A stretch of DNA of 64,000 bases from Candidatus Bathyarchaeota archaeon (GTDB taxonomy: Archaea > Thermoproteota > Bathyarchaeia > Bathyarchaeales > Bathycorpusculaceae). The notes beneath the pieces are model-generated. The model was not told the origin of the DNA, made no database searches, and saw only the letters and a list, made by a program, of their open reading frames with translations. The DNA lies in assembly GCA_963832745.1 (NCBI GenBank), contig CAWHVC010000003.1, forward strand, positions 96,001 to 160,000, written 5' to 3'. Shown piece by piece: positions 3,356-63,306 of this stretch (within the stretch, counting starts at the first letter, position 1; each line of letters begins with the position of its first letter). Both the position numbers and the translations under genes were made by a program.

Positions 3356-3427
3356 TTTTAGGTATAGGAACTACGCGGCTTATAGCACATTCGCACTATC
3401 ATTCAAAATCCGGGAGCTGGTTCACAC

Positions 3428-3477
3428 CAACCTATTTGCCTAATAGAGGTTCTATGCAAAAACCTAAGAGGGGTAGG
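3428..3477 (+). repeat. Dispersed ~55-bp palindromic intergenic repeat, intact copy
   Basis: CAACCTATTTGCCTAATAGAGGTTCTATGCAAAAACCTAAGAGGGGTAGG; matches 63093-63148 and the split copy at 39098/51680. Confidence 0.9.
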
Positions 3478-3587
3478 ATCATAATGATGCTTTTTGAAAA
3501 TTTTTGTTCCCCAACCAAACGTACCGTAAATATTTCGGTCAAAATAGAAATAAAACCTTACAAAAAGGGTTAAAGAAAGAACGGAAA

Positions 3588-6358: not shown

Positions 6359-6412
6359 GACCTACCTCTATAGGTTTCTGCAATGAGTTTCTATTAGGAT
6401 CCAAATAGGTTT
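6359..6412 (-). repeat. Dispersed repeat, inverted divergent copy
   Basis: Reverse complement AAACCTATTTGGATCCTAATAGAAACTCATTGCAGAAACCTATAGAGGTAGGTC. Confidence 0.8.
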
Positions 6413-6413
6413 G

Positions 6414-6965
6414 TTAAGAAGTTGAAGGTTTAGTTATCCAATCCGCAAGAGTAACCTTATTCGTGTTATCCTGCTTCTCCACCTGCACTATACCCCTCTC
6501 CGAAAGTCTTGCAACAACACGGTGAACCTTGACTCTTGAAAGGTTTGTTTTCCAACGAATTTCTTTCTGCAACATGCTGCCCTCTTTGGTTGAAGAAAGC
6601 GTTTCAACCACTTTACGTTCGTCCATATTTAACACTTTAAGAACTGCATCTAAAGTTTGCTTGTTTTGAGGCGGCGGCATAGGGACTTTTTGGGAGGCTT
6701 CAATTGGAGCTTTGGCTTGCTTGATTGGTGGAAACGCTATCATGTAAACAAATACTGCCAACGCAGCAATGAGGGGCACCACAAAAACGAGCAGCCACAC
6801 AACACTTGTGCTTGTCAGTGCCATGTTGGATGTTTGTCCCATGTGACCTCTACTGCTTGTGTCATCAAAAAGTGTTGTAGAAAAAAGCACCAAACCAATA
6901 ATGCTTACAGACAACAAGGCGACTGCAAGAGCGAATAGGGGTTTCTGCATCAAGTTTACCTGCAA
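6414..6965 (-). CDS. Membrane-anchored winged-helix regulator
   Basis: Two TM helices plus C-terminal wHTH (LQKEIRWKTNLSRVKVHRVVARLSERGIV). Confidence 0.8.
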   Translation of the reverse strand: MQVNLMQKPLFALAVALLSVSIIGLVLFSTTLFDDTSSRGHMGQTSNMALTSTSVVWLLVFVVPLIAALAVFVYMIAFPPIKQAKAPIEASQKVPMPPPQNKQTLDAVLKVLNMDERKVVETLSSTKEGSMLQKEIRWKTNLSRVKVHRVVARLSERGIVQVEKQDNTNKVTLADWITKPSTS

Positions 6966-38229: not shown

Positions 38230-38934
38230 CTACAAGAAAAGATTGTTGTCGACATCTATGAAAGTGTTGATTTCACTGGCAATCTTTGGATTTGGATTCT
38301 CCAACCCATACCGGTTAAGCCAAACGGCTTTCATTCCAACATCAATGGCAGGCAAAATATCGCAGTTCCAAGAATCCCCAACATACACAGCGTTGGATGG
38401 TGTGACATCAACTTTTTCAAGGGCAATCTCGAAAAGTTGTTTGCTGGGTTTTTTGTAGCAGTCGCTTTCTGAAATTATAAAGTAGTCAAGTAGTTTGTCT
38501 ATTTTGCATGCTTTTAGTTTCTCCATTTCCTGGTCGACCTGACCATTTGCTATTACGCCCAGTTTGGCATAATTCATCAGGGTTGTTAGGAGTTCTATGC
38601 TGCCGGGCACGGGTTGACGGTTTTTACAGTATTCTTTAGTATACAGTTCCACAGTGTTTTTTTCTTCTTCTATGCTCAGGTTTATTCCATACATTGCGCA
38701 CAGTTTGGATATTCCTTGTGTGGTAACGTCAGCCATTATTAAATTGCCGCTGGGAGTAGCACAATAATCGGAAGCGCCGAGAAGTCTTTCGTGTTCTTCT
38801 TCTAGTTCTTCTAAAGAAACAGCTCTAAGTTTTTGAAATTTTTTTTGAAGTGCCTCTAATCCTTTTAGACGACTGTGCTTATGGTCAAAAAGGGTATCAT
38901 CCAAGTCGAACAATACAGCCTTCATCAGACTCAC
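38230..38934 (-). CDS. HAD-superfamily hydrolase
   Basis: FDLDDTL, KKP, VGDSW-CDI. Confidence 0.9.
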   Translation of the reverse strand: MSLMKAVLFDLDDTLFDHKHSRLKGLEALQKKFQKLRAVSLEELEEEHERLLGASDYCATPSGNLIMADVTTQGISKLCAMYGINLSIEEEKNTVELYTKEYCKNRQPVPGSIELLTTLMNYAKLGVIANGQVDQEMEKLKACKIDKLLDYFIISESDCYKKPSKQLFEIALEKVDVTPSNAVYVGDSWNCDILPAIDVGMKAVWLNRYGLENPNPKIASEINTFIDVDNNLFL

Positions 38935-39097: not shown

Positions 39098-39132
39098 AAC
39101 CTATCAGGACGCTATAGAGGTTCTATGCAGAA
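39098..39132 (+). repeat. attL: left half of dispersed repeat ending in core TATGCAGAA (39124-39132)
   Basis: AACCTATCAGGACGCTATAGAGGTTC-TATGCAGAA, then similarity to the repeat stops abruptly. Confidence 0.88.
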
Positions 39133-39407
39133 TGCCTGTGGTGTAAAAAGCATGGGAAAATGTAAGATAAGGCGTAAGAAAACACGGTAAAAGTGTAAAT
39201 TTACGCTATTACTCGATTTTCATGGTAAACAGAACGGTAAACAACGGCGTAATCTTACACTTTTTGTAAACAGGCAGTATAAAGGTAAATGGGTGAAAGC
39301 GGTAATTACCTGTGTTTCCTTTGGAAATCACCCTGTAAACATGCCCGATTCATTGGAAAAAACACTTATATGCTTGTTTTACCATATCAGCGCTTGGTGA
39401 CATCAGA

Positions 39408-40094
39408 TTGAAGCCGAGGGCTGTTAGACTCAGCGCTGACTACGAAGCAAGACTACAGAAGGTAAAAGACTTCTATGGTGTTAGTGGCGGTTACTTCTCA
39501 GACGAATTTAGAAAGTTACTGGAAGTCCTTAGCGAGTGCATTGATAATCAACGCCAGTGGCAACAGACCGAGGAAACCTTAGAGAAATCGAAAGCTATTT
39601 TTTGCCAGTTCAGAAAAACCATTGAAATACCACACCGCAACAAAAAAACAGGTGAGGTTATTTGGAAAGAAAAAAACCTTGTATGTTCCCGTAACCCACC
39701 AACCTTTAAGAAAGCGTTTTTGCCGTTGTGTGATATTTGCCAAGCTAACAAGTTCCATCTTAAGCTGACAGAGAACACTATTGTTGAACAGCCCAAAATT
39801 GAAACACCCCTCTATGAAGAGTCTCGAGAGTCACAGGTAGCACCCAAGCCGCAACCCCAACCAATTAAGAAAGAACTCCAACCGATTGTAGGCTGGGAAA
39901 ACTACTCTGTACGCTCTGACGGCTCTAAAGTTTGTCCTTTTGGTGGCTATGTCTATCCAGCAAATTGTAAGCGTTGCAAAGAGGCAGACGATAAAAACAA
40001 ATGGGAAACTTGTGTAGCGCTTCATTATCAGCTACAGACTAACCCCTCGGCTCCAAGAAAATTTGATGCCCTAAACACAACAGGGCGCAATTAA
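39408..40094 (+). CDS. Proviral protein, Cys-rich, possible N-terminal RHH-like DNA-binding domain
   Basis: TTG start after GGTGA; AVRLSADYEARL; CDIC, CPFGG..CKRC. Confidence 0.65.
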   Translation: MKPRAVRLSADYEARLQKVKDFYGVSGGYFSDEFRKLLEVLSECIDNQRQWQQTEETLEKSKAIFCQFRKTIEIPHRNKKTGEVIWKEKNLVCSRNPPTFKKAFLPLCDICQANKFHLKLTENTIVEQPKIETPLYEESRESQVAPKPQPQPIKKELQPIVGWENYSVRSDGSKVCPFGGYVYPANCKRCKEADDKNKWETCVALHYQLQTNPSAPRKFDALNTTGRN

Positions 40095-40097
40095 ACT

Positions 40098-40370
40098 ATG
40101 AGTGAGCAAGAAATTAAAACCCCCAAACCTGCAACCTTAACCTATATCCTTGAAGTATCCCCCAAATGCAACAGGCTACAAGTTGAACAAGAAATGGCTA
40201 TTAGCCTGCGCAAGCTTAACGACTGCAAAGCTGTTGATGCTTACCGTTTTGGTGAACTTCTCGGTACAACCTGTAAGGGCAAAGGCATTACTGACGAAAC
40301 GTTGACGGCTGATTTTACCGTGATTCTTGAAACCGATAAAATTGCAGAGCTTCATGGCTCTAAACTTTAG
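40098..40370 (+). CDS. Proviral hypothetical protein
   Basis: Tightly packed ORF in operon. Confidence 0.6.
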   Translation: MSEQEIKTPKPATLTYILEVSPKCNRLQVEQEMAISLRKLNDCKAVDAYRFGELLGTTCKGKGITDETLTADFTVILETDKIAELHGSKL

Positions 40371-40381
40371 GAGCCTTGCAA

Positions 40382-41263
40382 ATGTCCGAAACACCCGATT
40401 TATTATTCCTTGGGCGAGGCTTAGACGAACCAACCCCCGAACCAACCAACACACGCACAGACAGCGACATGTTAAAAGAAATTTTTGAGCAGTACCCAAC
40501 AGCCGAAGAAGCAAAGAAGCATGTCAACGAGGTTGCAAAAGGAGAAAACAAGTTTAACCGAAAATTCAGCAAACCCAACTGCTACAAGGCAATCAAAAAG
40601 AAATGCAACTTCAAAGGCGATAAACCAAAAGTTTCAAGCCATGAAGCAACCGCAAGCATTCCAGAAGGCGAAGAAATAGAACTCCCCATCGAGCCAGACA
40701 CACCAACACAAACCACTTCAACGCACTTTGAAGATGAAAGCGGCATACCTGAACCTCAACCTTACAACCAACCATTCACAAACTACGAAGCCGTAAAAGC
40801 AGAACTACAACCAATCCAAGAACGAAGCGTCAAAGGCTTAGTCAACAACGTTTTTGACATGATAGGCGTTAAAGGCGAAGGCAAAAACGGCGTAGGTATA
40901 ACCGACCAAGAAAGCAAAGATACAATCACACTTTTGCCCTATATTCTCAAAAAAATAACAAAGGGCGAAATGAACCAAGAAACCTATGAGAACCTAACCA
41001 TTGGTTTACACGTTGGCAACATTGCAACCAAAGCAATAAAAAGCAAAGTTGCAGACCGAACAAACAAGGAACTCAAGAAAATTTTTGCAGAACAACCAAC
41101 AACAACACAGAAAATAACCCCTGCACCACAGCCAGCCCCAGCACCCGAACCAAAGCCAGAGCAGACACCCGAAACCAAACCCGAACAGCCAGCCATAAAC
41201 ATAACAAGCAACGACAGCCGAAACACGCCTTTCCTAAAAGCAATGGAGAAAATGCAACACTAA
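40382..41263 (+). CDS. Proviral hypothetical protein with Pro/Glu-rich linkers
   Basis: Long ORF after AGGAG. Confidence 0.7.
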   Translation: MSETPDLLFLGRGLDEPTPEPTNTRTDSDMLKEIFEQYPTAEEAKKHVNEVAKGENKFNRKFSKPNCYKAIKKKCNFKGDKPKVSSHEATASIPEGEEIELPIEPDTPTQTTSTHFEDESGIPEPQPYNQPFTNYEAVKAELQPIQERSVKGLVNNVFDMIGVKGEGKNGVGITDQESKDTITLLPYILKKITKGEMNQETYENLTIGLHVGNIATKAIKSKVADRTNKELKKIFAEQPTTTQKITPAPQPAPAPEPKPEQTPETKPEQPAINITSNDSRNTPFLKAMEKMQH

Positions 41264-41267
41264 AGGG

Positions 41268-41549
41268 GTGACAAGAATGAACTTTGACGATTTAAAAACT
41301 ATCTTAGGCGTTATGAAAACAATTATGCCGCCAGAAAGCCGTGAACAAGTTGATTCATTGCTTAAGCTGGGAGAAATAGCTCAAACAGTGTTGCCCAAAG
41401 ATGCCGTTCAAACAAAGCCATTAATGGAGATGCTTAAGCGCTGTCATGTTGAGCAAACCACTTACAAGGGTAAAAAGTGCGTTGCCATTATCATCGAAAA
41501 AATCCCCCCAGCAATCGAAACAACCGCAATAAAGAAGGCAGACGCATGA
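41268..41549 (+). CDS. Proviral hypothetical protein
   Basis: ORF with GGTGA SD; ATGA overlap with next gene. Confidence 0.65.
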   Translation: MTRMNFDDLKTILGVMKTIMPPESREQVDSLLKLGEIAQTVLPKDAVQTKPLMEMLKRCHVEQTTYKGKKCVAIIIEKIPPAIETTAIKKADA

Positions 41550-41767
41550 AGCCCTTAAACGCCTCAATAGACATGCAACCATACAATGAAGAAACAATCA
41601 GAACCAACCACGCCAACCTAAAAAGACGCTCCATAGCAGACCTTGAAGCAATCATCGACAGCAACCACGCAAGCCTAACCACAAAAGGTTTAGCCTTCCT
41701 ACTACTGCAAAAAAGAAAACCAGCCGAAAAGCGCAAACTGCCGCCTAAGCAGTTTGTGTGTGTGTGA
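41546..41767 (+). CDS. Proviral hypothetical protein ending in a (TG)n tract
   Basis: ATG overlaps upstream TGA. Confidence 0.55.
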   Translation: MKPLNASIDMQPYNEETIRTNHANLKRRSIADLEAIIDSNHASLTTKGLAFLLLQKRKPAEKRKLPPKQFVCV

Positions 41768-41775
41768 GTGTGTGT
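41744..41775 (+). repeat. Left inverted repeat with (TG)6
   Basis: CCTAAGCAGTT(TG)6AGTGTGTGT. Confidence 0.8.
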
Positions 41776-41778
41776 ATT

Positions 41779-42132
41779 ATGAGTTGTAGCAGTCAACACT
41801 CAACCATTCTTTTCTGCCCCAAATGCCCCAACAAAAAAACACTTACATGCCAGTTCTGCAACGGAACCCAACTCAAAGCCGAACTAATCAAAGAACGCTT
41901 AGAAGTCAAAGCAAAAGACAGAAGGCGCAACTTCAAACAAGAAATAGTACACGTTTTCGTTTTCAACAACGGCTTAGTAACGACCACAGACCAAAAAGAC
42001 GATGTAATGCTTCAATTCACAGGCAAACAAGAAACCAAACTGAAAAGCATCAAACAAAGAATTGACAAACAAAAACCCTGCAAAATAACTTGGCATTCTG
42101 AAAGATGCATGAAAGAAGAGGTTTACGTCTAA
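41779..42132 (+). CDS. Proviral zinc-finger protein
   Basis: CPKC...CQFC. Confidence 0.65.
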   Translation: MSCSSQHSTILFCPKCPNKKTLTCQFCNGTQLKAELIKERLEVKAKDRRRNFKQEIVHVFVFNNGLVTTTDQKDDVMLQFTGKQETKLKSIKQRIDKQKPCKITWHSERCMKEEVYV

Positions 42133-42416
42133 TGGTAAAGGTGACGGTTCAAAGAAAATGTGAGTTGGTAATTAACCAACTCATAACAAAAGGCTTCCTA
42201 ATTCAAGTTAACCAAAATCACCTTGATGCCGCAATAATGAGAACGCTTAGAGTGATGGATAAGCGAACAATCAAGAACGTCAAAGATGCAATGGTTTGTT
42301 TGGAATACTTAACGGTAACAGCGCCAGAAGTTTACAAGCTCAATCTTGATGCAATCACAGAAAAAGCGACCCTTGAAGAACTGAAAAGCCGACAGGTGAC
42401 AATCAATGAATGCTGA
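42132..42416 (+). CDS. Proviral small protein, possibly winged-helix
   Basis: DKRTIKNVKDAMVCLEYL...VYKLN pattern; TAATG overlap. Confidence 0.6.
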   Translation: MVKVTVQRKCELVINQLITKGFLIQVNQNHLDAAIMRTLRVMDKRTIKNVKDAMVCLEYLTVTAPEVYKLNLDAITEKATLEELKSRQVTINEC

Positions 42417-42672
42417 AAGACAAGGAATCTTAGTTAACCGTTTAGACTCTATAGAAAAAGAGTATAAATGGGGTAATAAAGACAAAGCATTCCATTACTT
42501 GACGGAAATCTTGAAAGAAGTCATTAGAGAAGAAAGCCAAGATAACCAACGAATCAGCGATTTAATAAACATAACAAAAGAGCATAACGACAACATCAAC
42601 AATCACAGCCAAGCCTTAACGGAACTACAATCAAAGGAGCATGTTCATAATGGAAAGTCTAAAAATAAATAA
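42406..42672 (+). CDS. Proviral coiled-coil protein
   Basis: AGGTGA SD; heptad-like C-terminal half. Confidence 0.6.
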   Translation: MNAERQGILVNRLDSIEKEYKWGNKDKAFHYLTEILKEVIREESQDNQRISDLINITKEHNDNINNHSQALTELQSKEHVHNGKSKNK

Positions 42673-42832
42673 GAAAAGGACTTTCCGAGTACGAATAAAC
42701 CGTACAGATACAAGAAAAGGCGAACCCTACCTATCCTTAGTAGCATTAACTGATAGATACATCGAATTAGAGTTTCAAAGTGACGCTAACATACAGCCAG
42801 AACTTAAACCATTAATGGAGAGAGAAAATTGA
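42650..42832 (+). CDS. Proviral small beta-rich basic protein
   Basis: GGAG SD; overlapping ORF. Confidence 0.55.
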   Translation: MESLKINKKRTFRVRINRTDTRKGEPYLSLVALTDRYIELEFQSDANIQPELKPLMEREN

Positions 42833-42859
42833 GTATTATTCTTTCTTTCTCTAACAGTA

Positions 42860-42887
42860 ACACACACTCACACACACAAACTTTAGG
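42860..42887 (-). repeat. Right inverted repeat with (TG)5
   Basis: ACACACACT(CA)5AACTTTAGG is the reverse complement of CCTAAAGTT(TG)5AGTGTGTGT. Confidence 0.8.
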
Positions 42888-42974
42888 TAAGGAAATGAAG
42901 CGGTCTTTAGAGGTTCATTGGAACGGAAAAATTCCTTTGCCTAAAACCGTTAAAACCTTCTTAGGAGCTAAACA

Positions 42975-43610
42975 ATGACAATTTTTCCACGCCTAACCAT
43001 GCCAGCAAACCGAGTTTACAAAGATTGCTGGGCAATCATCGGAATGCGGCAAAGCGGCAAAACAAATTTTCTAAAATGGCTCTTAAGCCAAAGCCACGCA
43101 AGATATACAATCTTTAACACAATCGGCGCAATCAAAGATTGGCAACCACTACACCCCAAAATTCAACGCATCGTCACCCCTAACGGCTGGGAAGATATAC
43201 AAGCATGTTTCAGCAAAACAGCTAAAGAAGTATGGAAGCAAGGCAATCAACAATTCATTATTGACGATATCGCAGTAAGGCACGATGTAAAAGGCAAACT
43301 TAAGCCCTTTTTAACTGATAAGTTTTGGATGCATAGCGAGCTTGCTAAAATAATGAATCAAGGCGGCAACCGAAATATCAGTTTATGGTTAAAGGCTCAA
43401 AGAGTCGCACAAGTTCACAACGACCTATTAAGCAACTGCGACCACCATGTAATCTTTAAGCTCTATTTGCCGCAAGATATTGATTGGTATTCTGGCGTAA
43501 TTCCAAAAACGGTTGTTGAAGCAAGCAAAGACCTTCCCGAACACGAATTTATTTATTACAGGCTGGGCGAGCAACCACAGTTTTGCAAAGCCGTTAAAAG
43601 GATGGTCTAA
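42975..43610 (+). CDS. Viral genome-packaging ATPase (FtsK-HerA/A32-like)
   Basis: Walker A GMRQSGKT, Walker B FIIDD, ISLWLKAQR motif; ~210 aa; directly upstream of the MCP. Confidence 0.82.
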   Translation: MTIFPRLTMPANRVYKDCWAIIGMRQSGKTNFLKWLLSQSHARYTIFNTIGAIKDWQPLHPKIQRIVTPNGWEDIQACFSKTAKEVWKQGNQQFIIDDIAVRHDVKGKLKPFLTDKFWMHSELAKIMNQGGNRNISLWLKAQRVAQVHNDLLSNCDHHVIFKLYLPQDIDWYSGVIPKTVVEASKDLPEHEFIYYRLGEQPQFCKAVKRMV

Positions 43611-43756
43611 CCGTCAAGACCTGACCGCCTTACAGACTTCCAAACCCCTTTTTACAGACTTCCAACTTTAAGCGACTCTTTTTAAACATTACGACAACCG
43701 TTCTTAAGAGGGCAAAAAGATACGGTTTACGAAAAGTTTTAGGAGAAAACGTAAAA

Positions 43757-44632
43757 GTGGCATTTAGAAAAATATTTGAAAAATTCTCCATAAAAACCGA
43801 TAAAATAAAAGCAAATACACTAAGCTCAACCACACAAAGCACCGCAGACACAGCCGAAACCGTCACCCTTGAACTCCCCAAAAACAAACTCATTTACGGC
43901 GTTGACCTAAGAGTAACCAAAGACACAGACAGCACACTCGTTGACAACATCAACGAAATAAGAGTATTCCTAAACGGCAACCTCATAATCAAAAAATACG
44001 CTGGCGTTGTCGCAAAAGCAATCGCACTTTTGAACGGTCAAAAATGTTCAACAGGCTTCTACAAAATCTATTTTGTTGACCCACAACTCGGCGGCTCACC
44101 AATCCCAGCAGACGCATTAACCACATTCACTGTGGAAATTGATGTTGCAAAGGCAGGCGCAGGCGTAAAGAACGTTATCACACCAACATTGCTGGAAGGC
44201 TTCAAAGAATCTTTCCCACTGGCACTTAACAAAATCTTAGTTGAAAAATACAGCATTTCCAAAGCATACGGAACCGACACAGGCGAACAAGAATACGGTC
44301 ACGAAAGAACCCAAGACATTCTCGGCTTAATCTACGACTTAGGCGATAACGGCACACGAAGCGACACAGCATTCAGTTACTTAACCCTTGAAGGCAAAAG
44401 CCGCACCGAAGAAATCACCCCATACAGCAAAATGGCATTCAACCAAATTAAAGAACTCAACACCCAAGAAAGCAACGGAAACGCCCTTGCAACTGGAATC
44501 TTTGCTTTAACCTTCCCCGAAGGATTAGCCAGTTACAGATTCACCGAACTAAGAAGCCTCTTGAACATTGCCAGCGCTGGAACCAACTGCACAGCCAAAG
44601 TAATTGAGCGCTTCCTAATCAGCGCCCAATAA
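43757..44632 (+). CDS. Double-jelly-roll major capsid protein (STIV B345-like)
   Basis: LELPKNKLIYGVDLRV, IPADALTTFTVEI, KILVE and KMAFNQIKELNTQE..ATGIFALTF parallel recalled STIV MCP segments (IPRNNFIRKIRV, FPATMVQNIILSI, KVIE, KVSWAALQAENQAE..ASAIIDF). Confidence 0.78.
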   Translation: MAFRKIFEKFSIKTDKIKANTLSSTTQSTADTAETVTLELPKNKLIYGVDLRVTKDTDSTLVDNINEIRVFLNGNLIIKKYAGVVAKAIALLNGQKCSTGFYKIYFVDPQLGGSPIPADALTTFTVEIDVAKAGAGVKNVITPTLLEGFKESFPLALNKILVEKYSISKAYGTDTGEQEYGHERTQDILGLIYDLGDNGTRSDTAFSYLTLEGKSRTEEITPYSKMAFNQIKELNTQESNGNALATGIFALTFPEGLASYRFTELRSLLNIASAGTNCTAKVIERFLISAQ

Positions 44633-44648
44633 GGTGAGGTGAAAAAAC

Positions 44649-44882
44649 ATGGCACAACAAGTTAAATCCCAAGTTCAAACCCTAAGCAACCGCCTTTTCA
44701 CTTTAGGCGGCACTCACCGAGCAGGTCAACACAGCCTAACAGACGGCGAAATCGTTTGCGCCGCAATCGCAGGCATAATGATTTTTGCCCCTTCAATGTG
44801 GGCGAAAATGCCACTTGTCGGCAAATACGGAAGCGCAATGATAGCCTTTGCAATCATGGTAATCGCCTTCATAATTTGGTAA
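44649..44882 (+). CDS. Viral small membrane protein
   Basis: GAGGTGA SD; two TM helices. Confidence 0.75.
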   Translation: MAQQVKSQVQTLSNRLFTLGGTHRAGQHSLTDGEIVCAAIAGIMIFAPSMWAKMPLVGKYGSAMIAFAIMVIAFIIW

Positions 44883-44896
44883 GGAGCCCCGAGAAA

Positions 44897-44968
44897 ATGC
44901 CACAAAAAAACATGATTTTGATTGCAGTAGCGGCTTTGCTACTGCTCAGCTTTATGAACTGGCTCTAA
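44897..44968 (+). CDS. Viral 23-aa hydrophobic peptide
   Basis: MPQKNMILIAVAALLLLSFMNWL downstream of AGGAG. Confidence 0.45.
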   Translation: MPQKNMILIAVAALLLLSFMNWL

Positions 44969-45018
44969 GTCAGTTCACCCCACTTTTTTTAGTTAAAATT
45001 TAAGGGAGAACTTCAAAA

Positions 45019-45278
45019 ATGTACAAACTTCAAGCTCCAAAAATAAAATTAAGCCCTTTTTCAACGATTCGAGCCGTTGCAGAAGGGGCAAGCGTAAAGT
45101 CCAAAACTGGAAGGATGAAGTTGCAGACGCAGGCATTATCGCAGGCGTAACCTTTTTCGGCACTATAGGCGGTACGGCGGCAACAGGTGCGGCAAACATT
45201 GAAGGTGCATTGATAGCGGCTGGAAGCATATTCTTTACAATTCTTGCATTGAAACGAGGCTTAGTTAAGGAAGAATAA
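45019..45278 (+). CDS. Viral membrane protein requiring a -1 frameshift at C CCT TTT (45054-45060)
   Basis: ATG 45019 after GGGAG; -1 frame encodes DAGIIAGVTFFGT...ALIAAGSIFFTILALKRG and has no start codon upstream of this domain. Confidence 0.55.
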
Positions 45279-45280
45279 TC

Positions 45281-45505
45281 ATGGTTGCCGCCGCAGTTTT
45301 AGCCGCCCTTGACATCACAGCCGAGGCATGGAAGCGCTTAACGCCAGAGCAAAAGAAGAAACTTAGAGCGAAATATGACGAGGGCGCAAAAGGATTAGCT
45401 AAAGCATGGGCTAAAACTTGGGCTAAAAATACAAAAAACGCAAAAAAGACCGTTAAAACGGTTTCTAAGACTTTTGCAAAGAAAAAGGGCAAGGGGAAAC
45501 GCTAA
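45281..45505 (+). CDS. Viral small Lys-rich basic protein (possible genome-condensing protein)
   Basis: 74 aa, very Lys/Ala-rich. Confidence 0.65.
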   Translation: MVAAAVLAALDITAEAWKRLTPEQKKKLRAKYDEGAKGLAKAWAKTWAKNTKNAKKTVKTVSKTFAKKKGKGKR

Positions 45506-45507
45506 AA

Positions 45508-46302
45508 ATGGTTTGGATTAACCATCAAACCCCCAGCAACTACACAAACCGCCATAGAGATTGGTATCAAGGCGTTTTTCAAGGGGTAGTACACGCTTTT
45601 GCATTGTCAGAAGAATACCGCTATTATCTAAGCATGGAAAAAGAATGCGTAGAAATCAATGCTTGGTTTGCGGCTGACTTCTTAGGCATTCTTAGCTGGC
45701 TGAAAAACTTTTTAATTGACACCAAACGCAAAGCATACCAAAACGGTTACGTTGACGCATACGACCAAGCCGCCCTTTCAGCTTGTAAGGTCATGGAGTC
45801 AACCGAAGGACAAGCCAAAGAGCTTCTTAACAGCATAAACAACGCCTACAACAAAGCCATTTCTGAATCTCAAAAAATGGTTACAAACGTCAGCGACTAC
45901 ATTAACAAGAACATAACCCCCGCCCTAAGTGATGCCCAAACCGCAGTTTCAAACATTAAAACCCAAGTAAACGGCGTTGTAACCCAAATTAACGGCATAA
46001 GCTCACAAGCTCAAAGCGCTCTTAACAACGCAAAAACAGCCTTATCCAACGCCGACAGCGCAGTAAATTACATCAATAACACGATTGTGCCGAGTCTAAA
46101 CAACAAGACAAAGCAGATTGACAGCCTTTTAAGTGATGCACAGAGCAAAGCCAGCCAAATAAGCGTTTTAGGCGTTGACATCGGCAAAGTCAAAGAACGT
46201 TTAGCGGCTTTAGAGAAAGGGCAAACCGTAACCACTGGAAGCACAAGCCCAACCGACAGCATCAAAGACACAATTTCCTCAATTTTTAGACCAAAAAATT
46301 AA
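45508..46302 (+). CDS. Viral coiled-coil structural protein
   Basis: Long heptad region with an internal repeat (DYINKNITPAL / NYINNTIVPSL). Confidence 0.7.
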   Translation: MVWINHQTPSNYTNRHRDWYQGVFQGVVHAFALSEEYRYYLSMEKECVEINAWFAADFLGILSWLKNFLIDTKRKAYQNGYVDAYDQAALSACKVMESTEGQAKELLNSINNAYNKAISESQKMVTNVSDYINKNITPALSDAQTAVSNIKTQVNGVVTQINGISSQAQSALNNAKTALSNADSAVNYINNTIVPSLNNKTKQIDSLLSDAQSKASQISVLGVDIGKVKERLAALEKGQTVTTGSTSPTDSIKDTISSIFRPKN

Positions 46303-46323
46303 CTTTTTCGGAGAGAAAAAAAA

Positions 46324-46482
46324 TTGTTTGACCTACAAAACTTTAACATTGAAACTTTGAAAAATTTAGCAAACCAACACCAAAAAGAGTTAATCATAGT
46401 GGCTCTTGTGGGTGCGGCTTTGCTGTTAGTTTGTATTGCCAAAAAGCAAAAAGTATCACTTAGCGAGGTAGCCAACGCATGA
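46324..46482 (+). CDS. Viral small single-TM protein (52 aa)
   Basis: TTG start after GGAG; LIIVALVGAALLLVCIAKK; ATGA overlap with next gene. Confidence 0.6.
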   Translation: MFDLQNFNIETLKNLANQHQKELIIVALVGAALLLVCIAKKQKVSLSEVANA

Positions 46483-47060
46483 CCGTAATTGACAGCTTCT
46501 TTGATTGGCTTGAAGCCATAGTCAAGCCTAAGCCAGCAACAACTCAGCCCACAGAGACAGGTTTTGAACTGCAACCCGTCATAGAACAAACCGTCATAGC
46601 ACCCAACCCAACCCCAGCCGAAACAATACAGCCATTAACACCAATCACGCCAGCCGACCCCGAACCAACAACCCAACCCAGCACACCCTTTAACAGCTTC
46701 ACTTACAACGATAGCCCAACAGTGACCCCAACGGCAACCCAGCAAACGGCAACACCCCCAGCAGACGCAACACAAGCGCCAGTAGGCAAAGGAATTTGGC
46801 AAATAAACTTGAACTATGGCTTCATAAGGAAAGTCAACGAGCCAGAGGACTATCACTTAGAATATGGCGGCGCTAACGGTACACGCTTTGATATTGGCAC
46901 TGTCGGAATTTACGCAGATGGCATTAACAAAGCTGGCGTTCTTAGCAAAGCTGACATGATAGAGCATCAAGCCAAAGGCGGCAACATTGCAAAAGCTGAA
47001 TCTGGCTGGAATAAGGCGGCAATAGCTGACGCAGAAACCTTAAGGAGGGTTGTTCAATGA
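46479..47060 (+). CDS. Viral structural protein with Pro/Thr-rich stalk
   Basis: GAGGT SD; amphipathic N-terminus, P/T linker, globular C-terminus. Confidence 0.7.
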   Translation: MTVIDSFFDWLEAIVKPKPATTQPTETGFELQPVIEQTVIAPNPTPAETIQPLTPITPADPEPTTQPSTPFNSFTYNDSPTVTPTATQQTATPPADATQAPVGKGIWQINLNYGFIRKVNEPEDYHLEYGGANGTRFDIGTVGIYADGINKAGVLSKADMIEHQAKGGNIAKAESGWNKAAIADAETLRRVVQ

Positions 47061-47806
47061 ACGACACAATAAACGTAACCGTCACAACAACACAAACAGT
47101 CACGCCAATTCAAGGCAAAAAGTACATGATGGTAACCGTTGGCGCTGTTGACGTTCTTGTTAAGACTTGCAAACAGCAAAGTGTTAATGAGGATGGCGAG
47201 TTTTTCAAGCTCAAAGCAAACGGCGTTTACACCCTAAAAGCTGACAACGGCGTTTTCTTCTACGTTATCTGCAAAACTGCCGCTGGCTCAAGTACCCTTG
47301 AGATTGTTGCAAGCAATGACGAACTCTTTTTTCTAAACGACCCCTCGTCATTAGCACAAATTACGCCATACATCTTTAAAGGCACTGGCGGCGCTGTTCC
47401 TGACAACACAAGCCTATACGATGCCCTCACATGGAAACTTCAAAATCCCCCCGCATACATAAATCAAGAAAATCCAGTTCAAAATCAGTATTATACGGTT
47501 CTTGATAGTACTGTGCCAACTCGTATTAAGCAAATGGGTTTTCGTGTTGACACAACAGGCGAAACCGTACTTTGTCGAGTAACTATCGATGGTTTTGTTG
47601 TTTCTGCCGCTCCAAGAGTTGCTACAGCGGGGTCAATGTATTGGTGCTATTTTCAACCTGACTTAGATGGCAACGCTGTTTACAATAGCAGTACACTACC
47701 TACCCCAAACTGGCTTGAAGGCAAGACATTGAAAGTTGAAATTTGCAAAACGACAAATGCGGGCAATGGAAATATTCGTTGTGTTGTAGCTTACGAGACA
47801 AGGTGA
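47057..47806 (+). CDS. Viral beta-rich protein, candidate penton/spike
   Basis: GGAGG SD; two beta-strand-rich domains. Confidence 0.65.
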   Translation: MNDTINVTVTTTQTVTPIQGKKYMMVTVGAVDVLVKTCKQQSVNEDGEFFKLKANGVYTLKADNGVFFYVICKTAAGSSTLEIVASNDELFFLNDPSSLAQITPYIFKGTGGAVPDNTSLYDALTWKLQNPPAYINQENPVQNQYYTVLDSTVPTRIKQMGFRVDTTGETVLCRVTIDGFVVSAAPRVATAGSMYWCYFQPDLDGNAVYNSSTLPTPNWLEGKTLKVEICKTTNAGNGNIRCVVAYETR

Positions 47807-47810
47807 TTTT

Positions 47811-48224
47811 TTGAAGCCTTCTTTTTCTTTTTTGGCGGCTATCGGCTGTTTTGGCTTTGCAGTTTTGCTTTTTACACGCATGGACTACCTTGTTAACAAT
47901 ACGCTCTATAAACATGGCTTAAAATTCAGTGATGAATGGTACAGCGAGTACAGTTTGTTGTATGCGTTGCTGTTTCAGTTGACGATTGCTTTGATTTATT
48001 TGTGGACTCGTAGCTGGAAACTTTGCTTAGTTCTTGAAGCCTTTGTCTTGTCAAGCTGTCAGGACTTTGTTTATTTTGGTCTTTGGGAAGGCGGCAAGTT
48101 TCCGTCAGGGGATTGGGATTGGATGCCGTTGTTTAAGACTTTTGGGCATTGGACTACTAAAGACCAGTTAGCGTTTAGTGGTTTGGCGTTGGCTGGGGCT
48201 GGCGTTGTGGCGAAGGTGGCTTAA
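47811..48224 (+). CDS. Viral integral membrane protein
   Basis: AGGTGA SD; 3-4 TMs, QDFVYFGLW. Confidence 0.7.
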   Translation: MKPSFSFLAAIGCFGFAVLLFTRMDYLVNNTLYKHGLKFSDEWYSEYSLLYALLFQLTIALIYLWTRSWKLCLVLEAFVLSSCQDFVYFGLWEGGKFPSGDWDWMPLFKTFGHWTTKDQLAFSGLALAGAGVVAKVA

Positions 48225-48226
48225 AA

Positions 48227-48874
48227 GTGGGTTTGTTTGATTCCTTTTTTTCACCGAATCCCCCGACTCCAAGCGGCAAGAGTTGCACGGGTTGTTTTTG
48301 GAGTGGCTATCAAGGCAAGATTTGCCGAAAACCCGTTAAGCCTGCACCGATTTTAAACGTTGGACATGCTGATTTGTGCGTTAATTATACGACTACGCCG
48401 CCCACTTTTGACAGCACAACTTACACGGCTGTTGAAGCGGTTAAGACGGCGGTTGATGAAAACAAGATAGCTTTATTGGCAAAACCGACTTTTAGCACGG
48501 TGACGGCGAGTGATAACCTTTTGGTTAGTAGTGATGCTGAAATCGTTACGACTTTGACGGTGTACACTAAGTTTAAGGAGTTTAGGGTACAGGTGAACGG
48601 CAAATACAGGGTAACGTTTGATTTGACAATTGTTGGTACGTATGGCACTTACAGTGCTTTTGGACAGGTTTGGAAAAATGGCGCTCCTTATGGAGTTGAA
48701 GCTACAAATAATTCGGGAAATTGGCATACTCGGAGTGATGATTTGGATTTTGTTGTTGGCGATTTGGTGCAGTTGTACGGCAAAGTCTATGTTAGCGGTA
48801 TTGAGTGTCACTTGAAGAATTTTAGGTTGTACGGTTCTATTTCTGGCAATGTTGCCTTTGAAAACCCTGTTTAA
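48227..48874 (+). CDS. Viral protein with N-terminal Cys motif and C-terminal beta-sandwich, candidate receptor-binding protein
   Basis: CTGC..C..C; YRVTFDL, DFVVGDLVQLYG. Confidence 0.65.
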   Translation: MGLFDSFFSPNPPTPSGKSCTGCFWSGYQGKICRKPVKPAPILNVGHADLCVNYTTTPPTFDSTTYTAVEAVKTAVDENKIALLAKPTFSTVTASDNLLVSSDAEIVTTLTVYTKFKEFRVQVNGKYRVTFDLTIVGTYGTYSAFGQVWKNGAPYGVEATNNSGNWHTRSDDLDFVVGDLVQLYGKVYVSGIECHLKNFRLYGSISGNVAFENPV

Positions 48875-48876
48875 AC

Positions 48877-49059
48877 CTATGTTTCACCCAGCTTTTTTAT
48901 TTTTGTCTCAACGGATGGTTTGCCTTCGTTGGCACACCAGCGATATAGTTTAGAAATGCTGTCTATTCCGATTTTTTCAAGTATTTTCTTGTTCTCGTTG
49001 AATAAATTTGTAAATTCTTTGTAGTCTTTGGGGGGGATGCGTATTGTTGTTGCTGGCAT
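48877..49059 (-). CDS. Ribbon-helix-helix-like regulator (candidate repressor)
   Basis: TTIRIP...GIDSISKL; only credible minus-strand proviral gene, divergent from the integrase. Confidence 0.6.
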   Translation of the reverse strand: MPATTIRIPPKDYKEFTNLFNENKKILEKIGIDSISKLYRWCANEGKPSVETKIKKLGET

Positions 49060-49440
49060 GGTTGCTTTGATAGGTTGTAAATGGTTTTATTGTTTTTGAT
49101 ATGGTTGTAAACGTTTGTGATTTTTTGATTACATTAATATACGTGGCTGGTTTTTTTCATTTTAACTGTAGTCTCTTAGGTTGGAACTATCAGTTCTAAC
49201 ACACCGTTTAAGAACAGCAAAAAGGTTTGATGGCTGAAAACAATCCTTAGGAAAGTAGGCAACGCCGCCCCAAAAAGACATTTGGTGACATCAGATTGAT
49301 GCGGTCTTGCCTACTCCCCTTACTCATTTTCTTTTGAAGTCTTATTAAGCCTTTCTCCAAAACTCGAGGTATTCTCAAAACGGTTAAGGGTTAACGTTTA
49401 TATGCTAACTTGCCTCTTCCTATGGCTTGGTGACATCGGA

Positions 49441-50898
49441 TTGAGTAAATTAAGAGGTACTGTAAAGTTTAAAGAAGATTTGTTGGCGATTTTTCGTCAT
49501 TTAAAGAAAAATCCCCAAGAACCCGACCCTATTAAAAGCTGGGCTGTCGTACCCTTTGAAGGCAAAATCAACGGAAAAACACAGAGAATTGACAACAAAC
49601 GAGCATTAGCCGCCTATTTTGGCATTAGCCACATGAAGCTTTATGACATTCTAAAAAAGAACCCTCATGGAGTAGTTGATGCTTCAAAGCCTAAAACAGT
49701 TCAACCCGAAAGCGCAAGGCAGTATCAAGAAACCATTATCCACACTGAAATCATTAAACGCTATGCCAAATACATTAACCCACAAACAGGCTTACTAACA
49801 GGACACGGTGCATCTGTTGACCGCATGGGCGAAAACCTTTTTTTCATGTTCAAACGTGACCCAGCGCTTTTAACAAAGGAGCAGTATGTGCAGGCTGTTC
49901 GTGACCCCCGATTTGCAAAGGCTGACGGCTCAATAAAAGTGGAACAACTCAGCAAAATTAGACTTGTTTTAGATACTGCCGCCCAACTAAAAGACGTTCC
50001 CATAAGTGGCTACAAATTTAGAGATGGTGACGAATTTTATGAACGAGGCTTACAGATTAAAGGCGGCAAATTGGAACTCTACTTACAAGAGCATGAACTA
50101 ATACAATTTGTCAAAAACATTGACTGTATAGACACTTTAGTAATGCACAGACTCGGCTTAGAAGCTGGAAGCCGTATTTCAAGCGCAATGTTGGTTAGCC
50201 GCGAAAATATCTTGTTTGACCTAAACACCATTGTGATGTATGAACCAAAAGTCAAGAAAAAAGAAAAACGCATCTTTGCCACTGAAACACTCGATTTTAT
50301 TAACATGTACATCAGAGAATGCCCTAAGCCAACGCCACAAAACCCCCGAAACATCGGTATAATCGGAAAACTCTTTGAAAGGCACAAGAGCGCAGGCAAA
50401 AATTATCAAAGCTATAATAGTAGCATTAGACGGGCTGGCTTTAATGCTGGACTATGGGGCTACCAGACCGACGCAAAAGGAAAACCAATGTTTACTGAAA
50501 AAACAGTTAGAAAACGAGGCGGCGGCGGTGCATTAGGCAAAGAAAAACACTACTTAACAGAAGGTAAGTTGACAACAAGCCACACAACAATGAAGCACAC
50601 CTTTGTAAGCCTTTCAAGTCAACACGGTTTTAGCATTGATGATTGTGCAAGACAAACAGGAACCAAAGCAAGCACCCTTACAGACTTCTATCACGGCGGC
50701 GGCGAAAGTACACTTTTAGCGCTTATTTTGGGGAAAAGAACTTTCGTGCCTTGGCATGTGTGGATTAGGGAAACTATAGACCCCCTTTATCGAAAACAAT
50801 ATACTGATTTGAAGAGACAGGGCAAATGGACTATTTCGAGCGAGCAACAACGCATTGAAGAAAAGACGCTTAGCGATAAAATCGAGGATGAAGCCTAA
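49441..50898 (+). CDS. Tyrosine recombinase/integrase (divergent)
   Basis: LGLEAGSRISS (R), PKVKK (K), TSHTTMKHTFVS, ARQTGT..STLTDFY (Y); TTG start after GGTGA. Confidence 0.8.
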   Translation: MSKLRGTVKFKEDLLAIFRHLKKNPQEPDPIKSWAVVPFEGKINGKTQRIDNKRALAAYFGISHMKLYDILKKNPHGVVDASKPKTVQPESARQYQETIIHTEIIKRYAKYINPQTGLLTGHGASVDRMGENLFFMFKRDPALLTKEQYVQAVRDPRFAKADGSIKVEQLSKIRLVLDTAAQLKDVPISGYKFRDGDEFYERGLQIKGGKLELYLQEHELIQFVKNIDCIDTLVMHRLGLEAGSRISSAMLVSRENILFDLNTIVMYEPKVKKKEKRIFATETLDFINMYIRECPKPTPQNPRNIGIIGKLFERHKSAGKNYQSYNSSIRRAGFNAGLWGYQTDAKGKPMFTEKTVRKRGGGGALGKEKHYLTEGKLTTSHTTMKHTFVSLSSQHGFSIDDCARQTGTKASTLTDFYHGGGESTLLALILGKRTFVPWHVWIRETIDPLYRKQYTDLKRQGKWTISSEQQRIEEKTLSDKIEDEA

Positions 50899-51056
50899 TG
50901 GCTGATTCCTTTTTGACTGTTGAAGATGGCGAGGTTATGGTTAACATTAACTGCCGTTTTCATCATGCCCACATTTCCTTAAAGCAATACAACGCAATTA
51001 AGAAATTGCGGTTAGCGCCAAGCCGAGATGATGACTTCGACCCAACCCCTTTCTAA
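50898..51056 (+). CDS. Proviral hypothetical protein (52 aa)
   Basis: TAATG overlap with integrase stop; MADSFLTVEDGEVMVNINCRF... Confidence 0.5.
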   Translation: MADSFLTVEDGEVMVNINCRFHHAHISLKQYNAIKKLRLAPSRDDDFDPTPF

Positions 51057-51069
51057 GAGGCTGAAAACT

Positions 51070-51252
51070 TTGCACGACTCAGACAAAGAATTAGTCTGTT
51101 GGGTTATTGTCGCTATCTTGGTTTCTGTTGTGGCTGGCTGTTTGATGTTCTACATGATGCACTTAAGTGTCTCAAACAGTCAAGCAATCCCACTTTCAGA
51201 CCCAGCCAACCCACTAAACCCAATATGGCAGGTGAAGGACTTTGGAAGATGA
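51070..51252 (+). CDS. Proviral single-TM protein
   Basis: TTG after GAGG; TM helix; DPANPLNP. Confidence 0.6.
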   Translation: MHDSDKELVCWVIVAILVSVVAGCLMFYMMHLSVSNSQAIPLSDPANPLNPIWQVKDFGR

Positions 51253-51378
51253 TTGGACTTTTGACTGCCTTTCTTTTCTAATCGGTGGCGATGTTGTTAT
51301 CTTTATTTTTATTGCATTAGCTCTGTTAGGGTTTGTTTAGGAACAAAGTTTTTTAACTCAACCAAACAACCTTTTTTT

Positions 51379-51564
51379 ATGTCACCAAATAAAAACGGCT
51401 TACCTTGCCCTAAATGCAAGACCGAAACTCAAGACCTTTTCTCTGTTGAAAATGGAACCGAAAAAATATTTTGTCTTGTTTGTGGTACCGAGAAAGGACT
51501 TTTAGAAACAGGGGATACCCCAAAAAGCGCCTGCGGCGCACGGCACAAAGTAGCGCAAGTCTAA
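51379..51564 (+). CDS. Proviral zinc-ribbon protein
   Basis: CPKC...CLVCG. Confidence 0.6.
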   Translation: MSPNKNGLPCPKCKTETQDLFSVENGTEKIFCLVCGTEKGLLETGDTPKSACGARHKVAQV

Positions 51565-51652
51565 AGAAGTATTCAGGGGTGACCCCCAAAAAGGTTTTTT
51601 GAAGTCTTTTAATTGACTTGATTTTGTTTTTTGAAGTGTAAGAATGTCAATT

Positions 51653-51680
51653 TATGCAGAAACCTAAGAGGGGTAGGTCG
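51653..51680 (+). repeat. attR: core TATGCAGAA plus right half of dispersed repeat
   Basis: TATGCAGAA-ACCTAAGAGGGGTAGGTCG; upstream sequence unrelated to the repeat. Confidence 0.88.
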
Positions 51681-51797: not shown

Positions 51798-52055
51798 TTA
51801 CATGTGCTCAACTATTTCAATCACATTAACGGTTGAAGCAATCCAACGCAAATACGCGTTAACCGTGGCCCGTAAAGCAATAGTGTCGTCCGCATCAACC
51901 GTTAACACAAGAAAGTTATCGTTCACCTGCAAATCCACATTTGCTCGATGGGTAACAGGCGAGTTAACTTCAGGCTTCAACGCCGCAACTGCCGCCGTCA
52001 ACTGTTTGGAGTCACAGAATTTCAAACATATAGACGCTTTAGCCTTAATCGCCAT
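51798..52055 (-). CDS. pcc1: KEOPS complex subunit Pcc1
   Basis: AALKPE...ADDTIALRATVNAYLRWI; exosome operon context. Confidence 0.9.
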   Translation of the reverse strand: MAIKAKASICLKFCDSKQLTAAVAALKPEVNSPVTHRANVDLQVNDNFLVLTVDADDTIALRATVNAYLRWIASTVNVIEIVEHM

Positions 52056-63046: not shown

Positions 63047-63092
63047 TTTTACTACAGAAAATTAACTGCACCAACACCGCTATGTTGTTCTC

Positions 63093-63148
63093 CAACCTGT
63101 TAGGAGCCTATTAGAGGTTCTATGTAAAAACCTAAGGGGGGTAGGTCG
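63093..63148 (+). repeat. Dispersed ~55-bp palindromic repeat, intact copy
   Basis: CAACCTGTTAGGAGCCTATTAGAGGTTCTATGTAAAAACCTAAGGGGGGTAGGTCG. Confidence 0.9.
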
Positions 63149-63306
63149 TATTGACGCTTTTTCAACCCAAAAACAAGCAGCAAAGCCTCATCTGCCAACA
63201 ACAACACGCAATTTCACCTGCAATTTTGCCCTTCAAAGTTTCAGGATAGCGAAAAGGTGAAAAGCAACTTTGTGTTGATTAAATCATAAGATATGGTGAC
63301 TCAAAA

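Follow-up and report, generated by a model that had tools for sequence, protein, structure and literature searches.

A Bathyarchaeia provirus lies in the split core of a dispersed extragenic repeat, its probable multicopy attachment site

A provirus of 12,520 bp in the chromosome of a Candidatus Bathyarchaeota archaeon was found between the two halves of one copy of a dispersed repeat, split at its conserved 9-bp core. Very probably, a viral tyrosine recombinase integrated it conservatively, by recombination between a viral attachment site (attP) and the repeat core, with the repeat as a multicopy host attachment site (attB). This account draws on the split copy itself, on intact orthologous copies in relatives, on the family of the recombinase, and on two more junctions at the same position of the repeat. 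The DNA analyzed, hereafter the window, was a stretch of 64,000 nucleotides (contig C3, positions 96001-160000) of genome G000, whose assembly has 3.02 Mb in five contigs. Positions are those of the window unless a contig is named; G-numbers denote the genomes compared, G000 being the one that holds the provirus, and L-numbers the loci fetched. The evidence was made up of assembled junctions and sequence comparison.

Results

Insertion Site

The sequence TATGCAGAA was present at 39124-39132 and again at 51653-51661, as a direct repeat of exactly 9 bp: the bases outside it differed between both ends (C vs. T before, T vs. A after). A profile of the repeat was built from 17 seed copies, which were the genome matches (≤ 5 substitutions) to a 29-nt piece of the copy at 3444-3472, and was used to search G000 with nhmmer (cut-off E < 0.01). 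The left attachment site (attL; 39098-39132, + strand) was the left half of a split copy ending in the 9-bp core (half match at C3 135098-135132, model positions 28-63). The right one (attR; 51653-51680, + strand) was the core followed by the right half (half match at C3 147652-147680, window 51652-51680, model positions 54-82). Both halves were contiguous in the repeat model and overlapped just in the duplicated core, and therefore both flanks were parts of one repeat copy. Joining the flanks in silico resulted in one match to model positions 27-82 (47.2 bits; E = 6.1e-12 in a genome-sized search), and the restoration of a full copy was well past chance.

Intact copies were found in the window at 3417-3483 (+ strand; E = 6.3e-16), 63077-63153 (+ strand; E = 5.1e-19) and 6359-6419 (- strand; C3 102419-102359; E = 2.2e-9). 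An earlier reading of the window, made from its letters alone (the sequence-only reading), had reported the 9-bp duplication at the same coordinates, the rebuilding of the repeat by the joined flanks, and intact copies near 3428 and 63093, and the profile search bore out each of them. It had also called the repeat palindromic. That description held for the split copy, where AGGTT and AACCT arms flank the core, but not beyond a sub-family, to which those arms were confined.

The provirus body (39133-51652, + strand) was delimited by gene content, AT skew and absence from four close relatives, and was single-copy in the genome. Its neighbors were a host gene for a HAD-family hydrolase on the left (38230-38934, - strand; PF13419, 3.9e-20) and the host pcc1 gene on the right (51798-52055, - strand; PF09341, 9.8e-14). 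Archaeal genes in the flanks included those for Pcc1, the exosome subunits Rrp41 and Rrp42, ribosomal protein L37ae and the HAD hydrolase. No tRNA genes were found within the window.

Empty sites were compared in 80 loci fetched via the neighboring Rrp42-like gene. The pcc1 and HAD genes matched together in five of them (L040, L045, L046, L047 and L108). In L040, L045, L046 and L047 (HAD gene 86-95% identical) an intact repeat copy lay between pcc1 and the HAD gene in the same orientation, with two copies in tandem in L046 (4502-4626). The fifth, L108, was distant (pcc1 56%, HAD-like gene 50%), and had its genes 64 bp apart with no repeat. The sequence of L045 was identical to that of the locus of G008 (L011), and was counted once among the empty sites. 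G008 was the closest relative by DNA, with flanks 83-87% identical. The flank matches were separated by ~640 bp in G008 vs. 12.7 kb in G000, and the ~640-bp stretch held an intact repeat copy with the exact core. The rejoined repeat that the sequence-only reading had expected between the HAD gene and pcc1 in virus-free relatives was present in 4/4 close relatives.

In four further loci, where no HAD gene was detected, a repeat copy came right after pcc1. Repeat copies were present on the downstream side of pcc1 in 8/80 loci, in differing orientations (L064, L109, L110 and L114 included); this position is either an old site or a recurrent target of the repeat itself.

Repeat Family

The profile matched 128 times in G000 at E < 0.01, and 101 times at E < 1e-8. 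Repeat length was roughly 60-75 bp, with a conserved unit of about 55-60 bp and variable modules on either side. In the conserved unit, two or three CCTAnTAGG-like units preceded a variable arm of 6 nt, which was followed by the core and ACCTATAGGGGGTAGG. The core was the best-conserved part, being exactly TATGCAGAA in 44/112 anchored copies, with TATGCAAAA (11 copies) and TATGTTGAA (10 copies) next in frequency. To the left of the core, the 9-mer was TAGAGGTTC in 18 of the anchored copies, TAGAAATAG in 13, TAGAAACTC in nine, and others in the rest. The right arm was nearly constant (ACCTATAG(G/A) in 70/112 copies). Short CCTAnTAGG palindromes occurred in repeat copies. On folding, the core fell inside an enclosed loop in 24/112 copies, and the conserved hairpin typical of repetitive extragenic palindromic (REP) elements found no support on that count and on the lack of compensating changes.

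Tested against crude open reading frames (ORFs) covering 80% of G000, 112/114 copies lay outside and 2/114 mostly inside, and strong orientation bias relative to neighboring genes was absent. A gene-start-like module to the left of 14/114 copies was discarded, for it opened just short, unconserved ORFs. The Y1 transposase of REP-associated tyrosine transposases (RAYT; PF01797) had no match in G000, with 6/14 control genomes positive, and a REP/RAYT system was rejected for the family on account of the missing Y1 transposase. Rfam had no match anywhere in the window. The repeat was built as a mosaic, the core unit being combined variously with other modules in a manner reminiscent of the build-up of bacterial interspersed mosaic elements (BIMEs); modules in G000 included a GGGTCTACC...GGTAGAC hairpin, GCTAATGGnnGAAAAA...CATTAnnATGTTGA, and GCTTTAyTTTTCAT.

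A census of 120 genomes of the genus with a 25-nt pattern of the repeat (≤ 3 mismatches; reversed pattern as control) found the pattern in 26/120 genomes and in none of the other 94; the reversed control was zero everywhere. Ten genomes had at least 20 matches (G000, 55; G008, 53; G332, 40; G287, 64; G295, 110; G246, 65; G147, 37; G219, 34; G249, 22; G333, 25). The family is therefore lineage-specific and expanded, and is REP-like in habit without being a REP/RAYT system.

Further Junctions

At C5:85381-85432 of G000, a left half of the repeat (model positions 12-63) ended in GGTTC plus TATGCAGAA. The next ~140-190 bp were 88-89% identical to the left end of the provirus (homologous stretch at C5:85433-85570) and were followed by unrelated DNA. 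The orthologous position in G008 held an intact copy (L157 1715-1797, model positions 10-87). The same 86-nt tRNA-like gene stood beside this site in G000 and G008, at 84 bp from the repeat and outside the crossover. ARAGORN reported that gene (G000 C5:85210-85297; L145 1279-1364) as "tRNA-???", and copies 80-95% identical to it occurred in numerous genomes across the order; the tRNA may contain an intron or be unusual in another way.

The other junction was in G332 (C1, near 1.3865 Mb), where a left half (model positions 14-67) with the TATGCAGAA core was followed by ~180 bp that were 78-81% identical to the viral left end. Its left flank was syntenic with G000 C3:81437-82849, and the orthologous copy in G000, at C3:81354-81422, was intact and diverged. 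The left halves of the three junctions, the one at the provirus included, differed in sequence and in neighboring genes; they are therefore three separate copies, hit in three events at the same model position. Since both additional junctions were in different repeat copies, the use of several copies was observed and not only inferred, which supports the proposal of the sequence-only reading that a multicopy intergenic repeat serves as attB. Homologues of the left end were weaker in five other genomes of the genus. Viruses with the TATGCAGAA core were seen just in repeat-rich genomes.

The arm GGTTC was present in 3/3 copies hit. In G000, GGTTC plus the core occurred nine times (seven intact copies and two junctions), and the bare 9-mer 104 times.

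An orphan right half (model positions 55-85) was found at G000 C2:387853-387883 (L136), beginning at TATGCAGA. The DNA before it was neither repeat nor recognizable virus end, and a 306-aa ORF of no known family, then cysteinyl-tRNA synthetase, lay beside it. The C1:548.2 kb region was considered as the missing right side of the C5 junction and discarded, as it held just a degenerate repeat fragment.

A 3,065-bp transposon of the IS6 family occupied the core of another repeat copy (G000 C3:615313-618377; L135), with an 8-bp duplication (CTATGCAG) and inverted repeats starting with GGTTCTGTT. It had a SWIM zinc finger with a DDE_Tnp_IS240 transposase, and three other ORFs, and being single-copy its target preference cannot be judged. 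Chance insertion into a core would be rare, given that the 3 Mb contain about 128 cores, each of 9 bp.

Integrase

The integrase was encoded by a 498-aa ORF at 49402-50898 (+ strand), and its family profile matched archaeal XerA (5hxy; E = 2e-14) and also the integrases 3nkh, 4a8e, IntI4 and HP1, with several bacterial enzymes among the matches. Homologues aligned from about residue 16. Relatives were few: four in a word-indexed search, and 71 (E ≤ 1e-3) in a set of 1.84 billion representatives. The alignment comprised the window protein and 45 of those 71 relatives, short fragments having been dropped (46 sequences). Its layout was an N-terminal helix-turn-helix (HTH) region followed by a catalytic domain with R258, K283, H394, K398, H399 and Y430. 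PF00589 was matched by 32/46 members at E ≤ 0.01, and 8/46 had an N-terminal HTH.

The catalytic motif of tyrosine recombinases is Arg-Lys-His-Arg-His/Trp-Tyr. R258, K283 and Y430 were invariant, and H394, K398 and H399 were conserved in at least 90% of the 46 sequences. K398 aligned with the second catalytic Arg of XerA (HxLKHT vs. HVLRHT). By its profile matches and conserved columns, the family is one of tyrosine recombinases with a family-wide Arg-to-Lys change.

The att site was ~750 bp downstream of the integrase gene; the enzyme is therefore not an SSV-type integrase, whose gene is itself split on integration. ARAGORN detected a single tRNA in nine loci around integrase homologues, at ~23 kb from the integrase. 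A consistent location of homologues at tRNAs, which the sequence-only reading had named as the finding that would speak against it, was not seen in those nine loci. Integrase matches were present in 16/301 genomes of the order, with full-length homologues of 41-45% identity in G016, G236, G150 and G061. No split repeat copy and no shared virus module were found in ~38 kb around three of these four homologues. Query P0003 retrieved four short metagenome contigs, with no repeat half on them.

Related Viruses and Their Ends

The closest relatives of the capsid protein and the integrase were P0076, P0077 and P0002; the capsid protein of P0076, from an 18.7-kb contig, was 82% identical, that of P0077 (8.5-kb contig) 76%, and the integrase of P0002 (7.6-kb contig) 64%. 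The capsid protein matched in 3/332 genomes of the family. G332 had two syntenic proviruses of ~12.6 kb each, L124 (C1:472500-492000) and L125 (C1:142500-162000), with capsid proteins 41-42% identical to that of the window and, in L125, an integrase 35% identical. Both lay in DNA without G000 counterpart, even at the protein level. Over about 1 kb, L125 and L124 shared 89-91% identity, suggestive of a recent exchange between the two proviruses.

Viral left ends and right ends were searched for in the 120 genomes of the genus, and were found in 7/120 genomes each (G000 counted in each). The left ends shared TCTGGA(A/T), then AAAAGCATGGGAAAA ~18 nt on, and then virus-specific short iterons. The right ends shared GGGGATACCCC and a GC-rich palindrome, with TCTGGA 110-150 nt further. 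The right-end motif was found in G295, G017, G342, G065 and G332, each time ~110-150 nt before a TCTGGA-type core. It marks the right end of this virus group in six or more genomes of the genus, and may act in termination, in packaging or as an arm-type site.

L125 was bounded by TCTGGA sequences ~12.6 kb apart. A 13-bp direct repeat was rejected as its att site: the conserved ends were at TCTGGA, and the 13-mer was part of an internal iteron array. A 16-bp exact match to the left-end iteron array of L125 occurred at G332 C1:1114748-1114763 (L134), inside the 5' end of a coding region (chance expectation about 1e-3 per genome).

In related proviruses, TCTGGA was present at both ends, at constant distance from the internal motifs, in different genomes and loci. 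This conservation of the core across loci fits a core carried by the virus in attP, and not a random target duplication. In the window provirus, TATGCAGAA occupied the place equivalent to TCTGGA. From the comparison of their ends, the wider virus group appears to carry its own short core and to integrate into ordinary DNA, and the TATGCAGAA lineage into the repeat.

Other Genes and Features of the Provirus

About 18 ORFs lay between the cores, nearly all on the + strand. AT skew was strongly positive from 39 to 47 kb, and the flanks had negative values. In tblastn against G000, 10 provirus proteins matched this locus only, bar one 35%-identical match to the 137-aa protein. In the viral left end (39133-39330, + strand), which had homologous left ends elsewhere, short motifs of GTAAR type were numerous and the conserved AAAAGCATGGGAAAA motif was present; these may be arm-type or regulatory sites. 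Early-side ORFs of 228, 90, 295, 93, 124, 103 and 88 aa (39408-42672, + strand) matched no Pfam family at E ≤ 0.01.

A 211-aa packaging ATPase with an A32/FtsK-like P-loop (42975-43610, + strand) matched phrog_2666 (8.9e-14) and, weakly, AAA_14 (0.0021) and Pox_A32 (0.015), and had homologues in both G332 proviruses. Its gene was directly upstream of that of the major capsid protein (291 aa; 43757-44632, + strand), a probable double jelly-roll protein like P2 of phage PM2 (PF18628 P2_N, E = 0.0024). The match to P2_N had 18 bits, below the 25-bit cut-off. In the capsid family, 9/13 members matched P2_N (best, 8.9e-6) and 1/13 matched P2_C (PF25513), and the nearest Atlas clusters were P2_N/P2_C families (score 0.97). 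The absence of a match of the capsid profile to PDB counts against the P2-like assignment; tblastn of the protein against 50,697 phage records had no match.

Structural-module ORFs (44649-48874, + strand), which were syntenic with those of the G332 proviruses, encoded a 77-aa membrane protein, a 74-aa protein, a 264-aa coiled coil, proteins of 193 and 249 aa, a 137-aa membrane protein and a 215-aa protein, and none had a Pfam family at curated level. The remaining ORFs of the insert were not assigned to any family in Pfam and phrog profile searches. The conserved right-end motif, common to related elements, was at 51506-51543 (+ strand), and was made up of GGGGATACCCC, an A-run and a GC-rich palindrome. 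By its gene content, the insert is classed as a provirus of a presumably temperate, tailless icosahedral-type virus. The sequence-only reading had also taken the region to be a provirus, and the ATPase, the probable capsid protein and the divergent tyrosine recombinase agree with it.

Discussion

Mechanism of Insertion

In the proposed mechanism, a viral attP with the 9-bp TATGCAGAA would pair with the identical core of the host, which is the most conserved center of a lineage-specific, extragenic, REP-like repeat family. The tyrosine recombinase of the provirus (49402-50898) would catalyze conservative site-specific recombination, and strand exchange within the core would divide the copy, leaving the left half with a core as attL and the right half, preceded by a core, as attR, with no gene disrupted by the insertion. 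Core sites of such recombinases usually have an overlap region with an inverted binding arm on each side. The preferred target would be the sub-family with the core between GGTT(C) and AACC(T), whose GGTT and AACC arms may act as two inverted core-binding sites around the overlap region, and may be needed for recombination. Arm-type contacts could involve the GTAAR-type iterons of the left end and, on the integrase, its N-terminal HTH. Several such copies per genome would provide several interchangeable, harmless attB sites.

Several observations weigh against this account. Complete proviruses with the TATGCAGAA core numbered one. The C5 and G332 junctions were left-end remnants (~150-190 bp) at synteny breaks, and no viral gene, right-end motif or attR was found near them. 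Neither a free or circular viral genome nor an attP junction was found, and single-protein scans of genome and viral contigs gave no relative. The seven intact GGTTC-core-ACCT copies in G000 were unoccupied, and the left arm of the family varied without compensating changes on the right side, which leaves a conserved hairpin unsupported. The integrase of the window on its own scored 13.1 bits against Pfam (cut-off, 27.1), and had five of the six catalytic positions, with the second Arg replaced by Lys (K398) family-wide. Integrase homologues at 35-45% identity were outside the repeat. In L125, the host flanks and the target were single-copy in G332.

Transposition-like insertion with staggered cuts would make the 9-bp repeat a target-site duplication, and the free virus would have no core. 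It agrees with the finding of just junctions and no attP, and the landing of an IS6-family transposon in the same core of another copy indicates that the core is accessible to transposases. However, the provirus is without terminal inverted repeats, neither a transposase nor Cas1 was found among its proteins, and a tyrosine recombinase is encoded ~750 bp from attR. Furthermore, related proviruses have the same TCTGGA at both ends in unrelated loci, as expected of a core that travels with the virus, and transposition is regarded as very improbable. An even poorer case can be made for entry through homologous recombination between a host copy and a complete repeat copy on the virus. A repeat this abundant could be picked up by a virus, but a full copy would be left at each end, whereas attL has just model positions 28-63 and attR 54-82, and the viral sides of the core are unlike the repeat; this origin is given almost no credence.

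The integrase could also recognize the bare 9-mer, the repeat being hit merely as the holder of a large share of the TATGCAGAA copies. The 9-mer is enriched in G000 (104 vs. about 34 expected from base composition), 39/104 are in repeat context (followed by ACCT), and the core that related viruses use, in ordinary DNA, has 6-7 bp. Against this, 3/3 junctions are in repeat copies with the GGTTC arm, which precedes 9/104 of the 9-mers in G000; with three events this is suggestive, and recognition of the bare 9-mer is considered improbable. Recombination of attP with the repeat core remains the preferred explanation. An extension of it would regard the core as a general landing pad for mobile DNA through at least two unrelated mechanisms (viral recombinase, three events; IS6-family DDE transposon, one event), with the repeats themselves perhaps being att-bearing elements. 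This extension is speculative and rather unlikely. A landing pad could result from binding of a host protein to the CCTAnTAGG palindromes or from an unusual DNA shape at them; alternatively, such integrases could have spread the repeats in trans as miniature elements bearing att sites. If the landing-pad or the mini-element interpretation were true, viruses and repeats would co-evolve, and proviruses at dispersed copies would drive chromosome rearrangement (both remnants were at synteny breaks).

Implications

A multicopy extragenic attB amounts to many harmless entry sites per genome. Polylysogens or tandem arrays are open to a virus that uses a repeat as attB, and its homologous proviruses, being spread over dispersed loci, can cause rearrangements. 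The repeat is a REP-like family, undescribed, and confined to a subset of one Bathyarchaeia genus, and the small integrase family has Lys where the second catalytic Arg would be expected. The short core, the arms and the several natural targets make the system suited to the study in vitro of a change in integrase specificity, from TCTGGA to TATGCAGAA. The enzyme of the Neisseria filamentous prophages, with which the present case is compared below, is a Piv/IS110-type recombinase and not a tyrosine recombinase.

The locus reveals a provirus group of probable double jelly-roll type in Bathyarchaeia, a type that a survey of Bathyarchaeia viruses does not mention, its text being without the words "jelly" or "Varidnaviria" (PMC10848311). 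In the part available of a 2026 provirus survey, 3/655 viral operational taxonomic units were assigned to Varidnaviria (PMC13573593). A report on high-quality metagenome-assembled genomes of the archaeal group of the host describes a tailed provirus of 46.8 kb, and the word "repeat" is absent from its text (PMC11697101).

Comparison With Known Systems

For the systems that follow, statements refer to the parts of the cited papers that were available. Archaeal integrases are known mostly from tRNA genes and, more rarely, from unique intragenic or intergenic targets. A 2021 review of archaeal tyrosine recombinases names targets of these three kinds, and its available text has 24 occurrences of "tRNA genes", four of "intergenic" and none of "repeated sequence", "multiple sites" or "MITE" (PMC8371274). 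Thaumarchaeal elements have short att sites, down to 8 bp with a median of 17 bp, and 15/68 have intergenic targets (PMC6563490). The background given in the sequence-only reading, that archaeal tyrosine integrases usually target tRNA genes with longer att sites, was too narrow, as an 8-bp att site and intergenic targets are known (PMC6563490). NitGar-E1 and NitGar-E2 are double jelly-roll proviruses in tandem in one intergenic site (PMC6563490). The present case resembles such elements in its tyrosine integrase, its short att site and its intergenic target, and NitGar-E1 and NitGar-E2 also in the double jelly-roll type, which is probable here; they differ in capsid (STIV-like vs. apparently PM2 P2-like here) and in host phylum, and thaumarchaeal targets are not described there as dispersed repeats (PMC6563490).

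Euryarchaeota, Crenarchaeota and Thaumarchaeota are known to harbor double jelly-roll proviruses that encode tyrosine integrases (PMC5894146). The TKV4/MVV/pTN3/STIV group shares with the window provirus the capsid and ATPase module, the tyrosine integrase and the archaeal chromosome as location, but its integrating members use tRNA genes, whereas the window provirus uses a repeat (PMC5894146, PMC8371274). No description of an archaeal virus targeting a dispersed repeat was found in the open-access literature, supplements aside.

The integration target of Nf1 is dRS3, a repeat present about 700 times in the genome of N. meningitidis (PMC7058167). The Neisseria Nf1/MDA phage is likewise a temperate virus with a dispersed, multicopy intergenic repeat as target, and loci vary between genomes; unlike the present case, the host of Nf1 is a bacterium and the phage is filamentous with single-stranded DNA, vs. 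a double-stranded DNA virus of probable double jelly-roll type here (PMC7058167). IS1397, ISPpu9 and other insertion sequences target REP/BIME elements, and are alike in being mobile elements that insert site-specifically into extragenic repeats (PMC1525189, PMC12288879). They differ in that transposases act on bacterial REPs linked to RAYT/Y1, vs. a virus with a tyrosine recombinase here. The closest parallels of the integration described here are bacterial: the Nf prophages in dRS3 and the insertion sequences in REP elements.

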